Shown: one piece after another, positions 18,322 through 20,321 of the stretch
Position numbering within the stretch: position 1 is the first letter of the stretch
How the letters are laid out: the number at the start of each line of letters is the position of its first letter
NCBI GenBank assembly: GCA_000165345.1
Contig: CM000434.1
Span: 128,001-192,000, forward strand
Direction of reading: 5' to 3'
DNA: 64,000 bases
Made by a program: the position numbers and the translations under genes
Notes under the pieces: model-generated
What the model was told of the DNA's origin: nothing
Database searches by the model: none
Seen by the model: the letters and a program-made list of their open reading frames with translations, nothing else

Positions 18322-19211
18322 TTATTTATTAAATATATAAGAAAATTCATTAATGGCTTTATTTAATTTTGATTTCATTAAATCATTAAATTCCAAAGAA
18401 ACTTTTATGGTATTAAGTAAATCTTTATATTCTTGTTTAGAATAAAGAAATTCATGAAATGATTTCTCAAATAATTTAAAATCTTTAATATTTAATATAC
18501 CATTATTATTATTATTATTATTATTATTATTATTATTAATGGTATATATAAGACAAGTAAGAAATTCAGGTTCAAAGAATTGAAATTGATTTTGTTGAAA
18601 TAATTCTTCAAGTAATTTATATTTATCATTAATCATTAAATTATTTGGATTTTGATTGGAATTCGAATCAGAAAATTGTTTAAATTCTTTATATTGTAAT
18701 AAATCCAATTTAATATTTTGAGAGACTTTTTTGATAGATTTATTTTGAGTTGAAGATCCAATTCTACTTATAGATAATCCAAGATTAAAAGCTGGTCTAT
18801 TTCCTTTAAAGAATAAATCACTATCAAGTACAATTTGTCCATCAGTAATTGAAGTAATATTAGTTGGTATAAATGATGAGAATTTATTAGATTGAGTTTC
18901 AACAATAGGTAAAGCTGTTAAAGATCCACCACCTTTTTCATCAGATAATTTTGATGATCTTTCTAATAATCTACTATGTATATAAAATATATCACCAGGA
19001 TAAGATTCTCTACCAGGAGGTCTTCTTAATAATAAGCTAATTTGTCTATAAGCATTAGCTTGTTTTGATAAATCATCATAAACAATTATACAATGTTGTC
19101 CATTATCTCTAAACCATTCTCCCATTGTACAACCAGTGAATGGAGCTAAGAATTGAAGTGATGCAGCATTTGAAGCTGTTGCTGCAATAACAATGGTATA
19201 TTTTAAAGCAT
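18322..19211 (-). CDS. ATP1: ATP synthase F1 alpha subunit, exon 2 (C-terminal half, including a 12-Asn insertion)
   Basis: [60 protein letters not shown]...[30 protein letters not shown] matches the F1-alpha core and C-terminal domain. The frame is continuous with exon 1 across the intron. Confidence 0.9.
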
Positions 19212-19291
19212 CTAAAGAATATAAATAAAATAAAATATTAAAGTTATTGAATAATTTTTTTTTTATATTAAATTAAATTAAACTAACTTAC
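19212..19291 (-). other. 80-nt spliceosomal intron of the ATP synthase alpha gene (GTAAGTTAGTTT...TTTATATTCTTTAG)
   Basis: On the minus strand the reading frame TAT G|GTAAGT ... TCTTTAG|AT GCT TTA AAA TAT restores the conserved alpha-subunit sequence [44 protein letters not shown]. Without splicing, an in-frame stop follows the donor. The donor is the consensus GTAAGT. The acceptor is a pyrimidine-rich tract ending TAG. Confidence 0.85.
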
Positions 19292-20321
19292 CATATTTTT
19301 CCAGAATTTTAACAATTTGAGCAACACTTGATCTTTTTTGACCAATAGCAACATATATACAATATTTTCTGGTTTTAATATCATCATAAAATTTTCTTTG
19401 ATTAAGAATAATATCTAAAACAAGAGAAGTTTTACCAGTTTGTCTATCACCAACAATAGCTTCTCTTTGTCCTAATCCAATAGGTATAAGAGAATCAATA
19501 AATTTTATACCAGTAATAAGTTGTTCATTAATAGGTTTTCTATCCATAATACCTGGAGCTTTAACATCAATTTCTCTTTTTTCTAAAGAAATAATGGAAG
19601 GTTTACCATCAATAGGATTTCCTAAAGCATCAACGACTCTACCAAGAAGTTCTTTACCAACTGGACAATTAACAATAGTATTGGTTGAGATAACTTGATC
19701 TCCTTTTCTAATATTTCTATCTTCACCTAATATAACAATACCAACATGATCATTTTCAAGATTTAATGCCATACCTTTTTCTCCAGATGAAAATTCAACT
19801 AATTCTCCATATTTTACTGATCTAATACCATCAACTTGTGCAATTCCATCAGCAACAGATATTACTTGACCAATTCTTTTATTATTATCTTCATGAATTG
19901 TTGTTGTTGAATAATAAGAGGAAAAATGAGTATTTAGATATGAAGATGGTGGAAATAATGATGAAAATAATAATTGTTTATTAAGAAGAGTATTATTGGA
20001 ATAAAAAAATGGTGAATATGAATATGAATTATTATAGAAAGAATTGATATTATTTATAGAAAATGAATAACTTGGGATTTTGTAATATTTTGAAGATACT
20101 TTATTTAATATATTGTAATTTTTATTGTTATTGTTATTTTTAATATTATATATTATAATTTTATTAATAAGATGTCCAAAAAATCCAAAACGATGATTAT
20201 AATTCTTTGAAATATATTGATTAATTCCATAAATGTATTTTGGGATAATATTATAAAAAGAAGTACAATAGCAATGATTAAATAATTTCAGAGCATTAAT
20301 TGAGTTTCTATTAATAATCAT
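19292..20321 (-). CDS. ATP1: ATP synthase F1 alpha subunit, exon 1. It carries a roughly 140-residue N/S/Y-rich N-terminal extension followed by the conserved N-terminal beta-barrel and the Walker A motif (P-loop).
   Basis: [73 protein letters not shown] and [23 protein letters not shown]. The exon ends with the G of a phase-1 codon immediately before GTAAGT. Confidence 0.9.

Follow-up and report, generated by a model that had tools for sequence, protein, structure and literature searches.

In dyskinetoplastic Trypanosoma brucei and in rho-zero yeast and human cells, a membrane potential is generated by F1-ATPase and the ADP/ATP carrier without Fo, and this mechanism is the working model for the role of alpha and beta in the C. 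parvum mitosome (PMC6133553, PMC12691609). Those cells retain the gamma, delta and epsilon subunits, whereas only alpha and beta are reported for Cryptosporidium parvum; in intestinal Cryptosporidium, these two are the only subunits of the whole ATP synthase reported to be kept, gamma being absent (reports including PMC6133553). A model in which ATP hydrolysis and the ADP/ATP carrier account for the membrane potential was put forward by Huet et al. in 2018 (PMC6133553). AOX and NDH2 were found in a 2025 study to be dispensable for the mitosomal membrane potential, and NDH2 was found not to be mitosomal (PMC12691609). The source of this potential is open because AOX and NDH2 are dispensable, and for the same reason the idea of hydrolysis coupled to the carrier has gained weight. 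The mitosomal ADP/ATP carrier has already been characterised (PMC7730227), and an ATP-hydrolysing complex of alpha and beta acting with it is the obvious candidate source. The present analysis concerns the gene of the F1-ATPase alpha subunit at 18322..20321 on the minus strand of a stretch of 64,000 nucleotides (GenBank assembly GCA_000165345.1, contig CM000434.1, positions 128,001 to 192,000), referred to as the window, in which all coordinates are given. As a gene it is unremarkable and has been annotated before, but it belongs to a topical subject. According to the reading preferred here, to which a probability of roughly 80% is assigned, this conserved two-exon gene encodes a protein that would be directed into the mitosome by the head of its N-terminal extension, the remainder of the extension being filler, and that would hydrolyse ATP as part of a rotor-less alpha3beta3 complex.

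The closest solved structure is the alpha subunit of Toxoplasma gondii (6TMH chain A), which matches the window protein in fold and sequence from the beta-barrel to the C-terminus and has the P-loop and the arginine finger in common with it. It differs in belonging to an F1Fo complex that is complete and very large, and in having a segment of about 75 residues ahead of the barrel. Nearer relatives are found among the deposited proteins of Cryptosporidium sp. 43IA8 (WKS78168.1), C. parvum (KAL5367932.1), C. hominis (CUV06488.1) and C. tyzzeri (TRY51170.1), all of which have the two-exon model, the neighbours and the extension as in the window. The only differences between the entries of the C. 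parvum/C. hominis group and the window are the length of an Asn run and 2-15 substitutions, mostly located in the extension. The orthologue of the gastric species C. muris and C. andersoni is more distant: its core is 71% identical to that of the window protein and its intron lies at the identical codon and in the same phase, but it has a standard-type C-terminal domain (31% identity to that of the window protein) that carries no Asn run.

A single F1-ATPase alpha product of 639 residues is obtained from 20321..18322 (minus strand) only once 19291..19212 has been excised, and the spliced translation is free of internal stops. The gene is complete (start codon at 20321-20319, stop codon at 18324-18322). 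Exon 1 (19292..20321, 1030 nt) holds codons 1-343 and the first base of codon 344; exon 2 (18322..19211) has a length of 890 nt including the stop codon. Three F1 alpha/beta domains, each scoring above the curated cut-off, were recognised by Pfam on the minus strand: the beta-barrel domain (PF02874, E=3e-14; residues 150-214, 19680..19874), the nucleotide-binding domain, which is split by the intron (PF00006, E=4e-73; residues 271-492, 18766..19511), and the C-terminal helical domain (PF00306, E=5e-11; residues 499-633, 18343..18747), which species comparison shows to be heavily remodelled in the intestinal species. All 60 listed PDB matches were alpha subunits (E from 1e-169 to 1e-119), headed by the Toxoplasma chain (E=1e-169), with which residues 146-634 were aligned across the splice junction. 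Every named match of a large protein-database search was likewise annotated as alpha. The identification as F1 alpha, already offered in an earlier note made from the letters of the window, is fully supported by these domains, structures and annotated orthologues.

Orthologues were aligned over 100% of the length in C. hominis (97% identity), C. meleagridis (88%), chipmunk genotype I (82%) and C. ubiquitum (79%), and the alpha subunits of C. muris and C. andersoni were 55-60% identical to the window protein. The protein of Cryptosporidium sp. 43IA8 differs from it by one Asn only, and that of C. parvum by two substitutions and the length of the Asn run. Approximately 10 kb of window DNA were 96% identical to chromosome-scale contigs of C. 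hominis, with gene order kept. On the strength of the near-identical alpha proteins and of this DNA identity, the window is assigned to the C. parvum lineage, and the gene, as judged by these comparisons, is the nuclear gene for the F1-ATPase alpha subunit of Cryptosporidium in that lineage. Both gene and intron are already known, since two-exon models are present in public annotation.

The intron (19212..19291, minus strand) comprises 80 nt of 9% GC, begins with GTAAGT, ends with TTCTTTAG and interrupts the frame in phase 1. The donor site reads TATG|GTAAGT and the acceptor site TTCTTTAG|AT; the donor is of the extended kind and the acceptor is rich in pyrimidines. Exon 1 ends with ...KILEKY followed by G, exon 2 begins with AT GCT TTA AAA, and the split codon G|AT encodes Asp; in the gene model, ...AAATATG is thereby joined to ATGCTTTAAAA. 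The spliced product is aligned without gaps across the junction with the alpha subunits of Toxoplasma and other organisms. If the intron were retained, translation would end four codons on (GKLV*). The earlier note gave the coordinates, the strings at the splice sites and the junction peptide exactly, and the public models splice at the same place. Its remark that the list of open reading frames (ORFs) shows the gene as two was also confirmed: the mechanical list splits it into 19278..20321 (347 residues) and 18322..19125 (267 residues).

Introns were located in the orthologous genes under the condition that the deposited proteins were matched exactly. All nine Cryptosporidium species have a single intron, in phase 1 and always at the same codon, with lengths of 80 nt in the window, 87 and 86 nt in two assemblies of C. 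hominis, 62 nt in C. meleagridis, 51 nt in chipmunk genotype I, 73 nt in C. ubiquitum, 90 nt in C. canis, 83 nt in C. felis, 190 nt in C. muris and 195 nt in C. andersoni (range 51-195 nt). These lengths are not congruent modulo 3. In an alignment of eight species, G|GTAAGT and TTTAG|ATGC were invariant, as they are in C. andersoni, and the intron interior was essentially unalignable between nearly identical flanking exons. The fixed position and splice sites, the drifting interior and the incongruent lengths therefore mark a real spliceosomal intron, which by these comparisons is of the U2-type GT-AG class and conserved throughout the genus. A frameshift or sequencing error as the cause was ruled out by the occurrence of insertions of differing length with invariant splice sites in nine species. 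Introns of C. parvum have mean lengths of 84-100 nt and an average GC content of 22%, and about 11% of the genes carry introns (PMC4637869); the window intron is thus near the mean in length and more AT-rich than average. The alpha gene of Theileria parva contains five introns (after approximately residues 56, 114, 284, 330 and 394), none of which lies at the Cryptosporidium site (residue 257/258 in Theileria numbering). The intron is accordingly regarded as genus-wide; a greater age, as an ancient apicomplexan intron, is unsupported because T. parva has no intron at that site.

Two public models were noted to be mis-annotated at this intron. In the deposited alpha protein of Cryptosporidium sp. 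chipmunk genotype I (632 residues), the intron of 51 nt, which is in frame and free of stops, has been translated as coding sequence; this adds 17 spurious residues (GKFIINIIQLIVYFHSL) to a correct product of 615 residues. The C. hominis TU502 entry XP_664952.1 is a fragment of 349 residues that runs into the intron and terminates there, and prokaryote-style gene calls on Logan assemblies split the alpha gene in the same way.

The residues expected of an alpha subunit are kept. GDRQTGKT (P-loop, residues 291-298, 19428..19451, minus strand), Q328 (in AIGQKRS; beta has its catalytic Glu here) and R493 (arginine-finger equivalent, 18763..18765, minus strand) were invariant in the alignments. The P-loop corresponds to residues 169-176 of bovine alpha and R493 to bovine alpha-Arg373. 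The ratio of nonsynonymous to synonymous substitution rates (dN/dS) among intestinal species was 0.04-0.19 for the core (barrel and nucleotide-binding domains) and 0.14-0.46 for the C-terminal domain. By this measure strong purifying selection acts in the intestinal species on the core, to which the P-loop and the arginine finger belong. Together with the decay of the stator-binding N-terminal helix described below, this selection on the catalytic core in species with reduced organelles is what the present comparison adds. Because purifying selection and invariant catalytic residues occur side by side with replacements fixed throughout the clade, the protein is, as far as such comparisons tell, functional but remodelled.

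The replacements are largely shared and fixed across the intestinal clade and cluster in the C-terminal domain and within the ETQAGDVSAY motif. At residues 283, 451-456 and 522-541 they include R283L in PIGRGQRE, a changed ETQAGDVSAY and AQFGSDLD turned into KQFSDSNSN. Structurally, they may reflect lost contacts with gamma. With 53 otherwise invariant positions replaced, the OSCP-binding helix eroded and a microsatellite inserted, the gene might also be taken for a decaying relic or an incipient pseudogene left behind after loss of the ATP synthase. This is very hard to reconcile with the intact ORF and with an intron that is conserved in all species examined; the clade-specific replacements, moreover, are fixed and conserved, and a pseudogene is effectively refuted by the dN/dS of the core. 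We regard decay as extremely improbable.

The inserted microsatellite is a run of 12 Asn (residues 569-580), which the earlier note had described as an insertion in the C-terminal domain. The run is real and is encoded by a perfect (AAT)12 at 18502..18537 (minus strand); a repeat scan of the plus strand returned a perfect (ATT)12.3 at 18502-18538. In other alpha subunits, the loop in which it sits has the sequence GVRGYLD or GVKGYLD. Copy numbers vary from 3 to 12 among relatives (window 12, Cryptosporidium sp. 43IA8 11, C. parvum 8, C. hominis 4, C. meleagridis 4, C. tyzzeri 3). The run is a slippage-prone, length-polymorphic microsatellite that is tolerated in a surface loop, and not a designed insert.

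The N-terminal extension was delimited by species comparison (residues 1-145, 19887..20321, minus strand; 14 Lys or Arg, 5 His, and rich in Asn, Ser, Tyr, Ile and Phe). The segment ahead of the barrel measures 145-150 residues and contains 29 Asn, 20 Ser, 19 Ile, 18 Tyr and 12 Phe. Its only two acidic residues are E144 and D145; residues 1-143 contain 11 Lys, 3 Arg, 5 His and neither Asp nor Glu, and the remaining protein is 11% acidic. The description of a long N-terminal extension rich in Asn, Ser, Tyr and Phe and poor in acidic residues was therefore accurate. An internal start codon bypassing the extension was ruled out, because no Met other than residue 1 precedes the beta-barrel.

Lengths were compared between species as the number of residues ahead of the barrel motif GxVIxxxDGI. 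The values were 150 for the window, 149 for C. hominis, 137 for chipmunk genotype I, 136 for C. meleagridis, 133 for C. ubiquitum, 88 for C. canis, 86 for C. felis and 69 for C. muris. An ordinary mitochondrial alpha precursor has about 65-75 residues in this place (C. muris 69; the Toxoplasma alignment starts from residue 75), so the true excess amounts to about 75-80 residues, not 140. Counted in another way, about 112-117 residues precede the position aligned with the start residue of bacterial alpha subunits. Acidic residues first appear at 127-143 in each of the five parvum-ubiquitum members; in C. canis and C. felis the first is residue 75, and in C. muris residue 48. For local comparison, 19 further long ORFs from the window were inspected; their first Asp or Glu was located at residues 2-29, and the longest acid-free run anywhere in them was 91 residues. 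The extension evolves 3-11 times faster than the core (dN/dS 0.37-0.79). Its doubling in the parvum-ubiquitum clade, strictly acid-free throughout, is a point added here.

The presequences that classically direct proteins to the matrix, for instance in bovine and yeast F1 alpha or in C. parvum Hsp70 and Cpn60, resemble the extension: they are N-terminal and positively charged, contain no acidic residues and have many hydroxylated ones. The extension differs from them in being two to four times longer, in containing Lys rather than Arg as its main basic residue and in consisting partly of repeat-derived, low-complexity sequence. In composition, the segment of the parvum-ubiquitum species thus agrees with a presequence (N-terminal, net positive, acid-free); in length it exceeds the range of approximately 15-70 residues.

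Three parts were distinguished within the extension. The head (residues 1-55, 20157..20321, minus strand) is best conserved, with 33 of 55 residues identical to C. ubiquitum as against 18 of 55 and 12 of 35 in the next two segments, and the highest helical hydrophobic moment (0.54) was found in it at residues 22-39; on these grounds it is the candidate for the import signal proper. The low-complexity middle (approximately residues 55-103, 20013..20157, minus strand) is derived from repeats and overlaps degenerate tandem arrays whose period is 6-22 nt, and interspecies insertions and deletions are concentrated there. The last part (residues ~112-140) is aligned with the delta/OSCP-binding N-terminal helix of bacterial and mitochondrial alpha subunits. 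The helix motif AEISxILKxQI is eroded in the window protein and its universal Glu (position 117 of the window protein) is replaced, which fits the reported loss of OSCP. The gastric C. muris and C. andersoni keep the helix (LNKILEEKISGL), whereas the window protein has a decayed form of it that no longer matches the OSCP/delta-binding helix of alpha subunits; membership in the alpha family is unaffected. This segmented anatomy and the expansion in the parvum-ubiquitum clade are modest additions to a known gene.

The earlier note had taken the whole extension of about 140 residues for an unusually long organellar targeting sequence. The position, the net positive charge and the absence of acidic residues, kept in every intestinal species in spite of drift, speak for this; the division into head, repeat middle and helix remnant does not. 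A single long targeting sequence is thus plausible by composition but not by anatomy. In its strict form, this explanation would have the entire segment act as one exceptionally long cleavable presequence, required over its full length and removed after import. The segment is acid-free and net positive as a whole in all parvum-ubiquitum species, its acid-free length is exceptional compared with other window proteins, and it reaches its greatest length in just the clade whose organelle is most reduced. Conservation is uneven, however, being higher in the head than in the remainder; the middle is derived from repeats and rich in insertions and deletions; the last ~30 residues are aligned with the degenerate mature N-terminal helix of ordinary alpha subunits; and C. 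canis and C. felis suffice with 86-88 residues, and C. muris with 69. We consider a presequence of full length rather unlikely. Because the extension is heterogeneous, probably only part of it, and not the whole, serves as import signal, and that part is probably the head. The rest is probably filler grown by slippage, together with the relic of a binding helix that has lost its partner, kept acid-free so as to remain importable.

The same features were weighed for a retained, lineage-specific domain, in which the extension or a part of it would serve as a regulatory tail, or would hold a rotor-less alpha3beta3 at the inner membrane of the mitosome as a tether or in place of a stator. Its dN/dS is below 1 (0.37-0.79), the motifs NIIPxYIxGI, FGxFGxLINKI and LNTxxSSYYS are conserved across the parvum-ubiquitum clade, the expansion accompanies the loss of Fo and OSCP subunits, and the C-terminal domain has likewise been remodelled and has then stayed constant within the clade. 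Against such a domain stand the lack of a predicted transmembrane stretch, the low complexity with its signatures of slippage, and the results of homology search and structure prediction. A phmmer search with residues 1-145 against 1.84 billion representatives gave no match at E<=0.001, although the cluster of the protein itself was missed too, low complexity lowering the sensitivity. The structure of the C. hominis orthologue was predicted with AlphaFold2 from an alignment of 37 sequences; the mean predicted local distance difference test score (pLDDT) was 56, and even the nucleotide-binding domain contained stretches of low score. The extension obtained a pLDDT of 25-51 in this generally poor model, which only weakly indicates that residues 1-145 have no confident fold. 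Helices were placed at 8-19, 27-40, 46-63 and 70-79, all with a pLDDT below 51 in a model that is poor overall. A retained domain is judged doubtful, and less likely than a presequence of full length. A similarly low likelihood is given to the idea that in the intestinal clade the extension is more than an import signal, namely a retained, lineage-specific appendage that arose with the loss of stator and rotor and that would tether or regulate a rotor-less alpha3beta3 generating the potential with the carrier.

Returning to import by the head of the extension, the proposed sequence of events is as follows. A signal in the first ~55 residues, which are better conserved, would bring the precursor into the mitosome. 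What follows in the extension would be low-complexity filler, enlarged by slippage of repeats and, after the loss of OSCP, by decay of the delta/OSCP helix, and the main constraint on this filler would be to stay acid-free, so that the import machinery still passes it. Inside the organelle, alpha and beta would form a rotor-less alpha3beta3 ATPase; with no other subunits reported, it would need to act as a rotor-less hexamer. Such complexes are known in vitro from Bacillus PS3. The hexamer would hydrolyse ATP brought in by the ADP/ATP carrier, and the exchange of ATP4- for ADP3- would then maintain the membrane potential required for protein import. An ATP-hydrolysing role with the carrier in the mitosome is the most likely function of the protein.

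Several points weigh against this proposal. We know of no demonstration of a gamma-less mitochondrial alpha3beta3 in vivo. At 53 positions with at least 93% conservation among all other alpha subunits examined, the intestinal clade carries replacements, so that its enzymology may not be that of a standard F1. The extension is rich in Lys (11 Lys versus 3 Arg) and far longer than typical presequences. Transcript, proteomic, localisation or enzymatic data on this protein were not found in the literature searched. Finally, proteins predicted to be mitosomal have been found elsewhere, NDH2 at the pellicle, with MQO assigned a nuclear/cytoplasmic location (PMC12691609).

The last point leads to the explanation that alpha is not mitosomal but, like NDH2, has been redeployed to another site, the extension serving that localisation. 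NDH2 and the MQOs had long been presumed mitosomal and localise elsewhere (PMC12691609), and as a presequence the extension is atypical, being long and rich in Lys and Asn. An acid-free, positively charged N-terminus is, on the other hand, the classical composition of matrix targeting, the hydrophobic core of a signal peptide is absent from the extension, and all published descriptions found place alpha and beta in the mitosome. Targeted literature searches returned no localisation study of alpha or beta, and the text of a 2026 sporozoite proteome paper does not mention the alpha subunit. Redeployment is considered improbable, more so than a retained domain, and import into the mitosome is kept as the preferred explanation.

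On the 3' side, the alpha gene is faced by a convergent neighbour on the plus strand. The ORF at 17521..18318 is the C-terminal part of a gene that encodes 534 residues in C. hominis, and the C. ubiquitum orthologue of this neighbour matches Pfam ATG14. Only 3 nt separate its end from the stop codon of the alpha gene (18316-18324), and the gap in C. hominis is also 3 nt; the 3' untranslated regions of both transcripts must therefore overlap.

Other genes of the window encode a TRIP13-like AAA ATPase (1299-2939), an alanyl-tRNA synthetase (3506-6481), a beta-CASP/metallo-beta-lactamase protein (8637-12227), an IML1-domain protein (12788-16264), a CK2-alpha-like kinase (20809-21834, minus strand), a further protein kinase (27302-29911, minus strand), an aspartyl protease (30834-32750) and the small chain of ribonucleotide reductase (43467-44525, minus strand). 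The beta subunit of the ATP synthase is not encoded in the window. The GC content of the window is 24.5%, compared with approximately 30% quoted for the C. parvum genome.

Two elements were noted between the 5' side of the alpha gene and the 3' side of the CK2-alpha-like kinase gene, where the spacer is AT-rich. At 20563-20585 there is a palindrome, perfect over 11+1+11 nt (AATACGGTACC-C-GGTACCGTATT), and at 20597-20615 a GC-rich block (ATGCCCGCATGACACGCAC). These could be a cis-regulatory or 3'-end element. Both are kept in C. hominis, C. meleagridis and chipmunk genotype I, the remaining spacer drifting, and the GGTACC core is kept in C. ubiquitum too.

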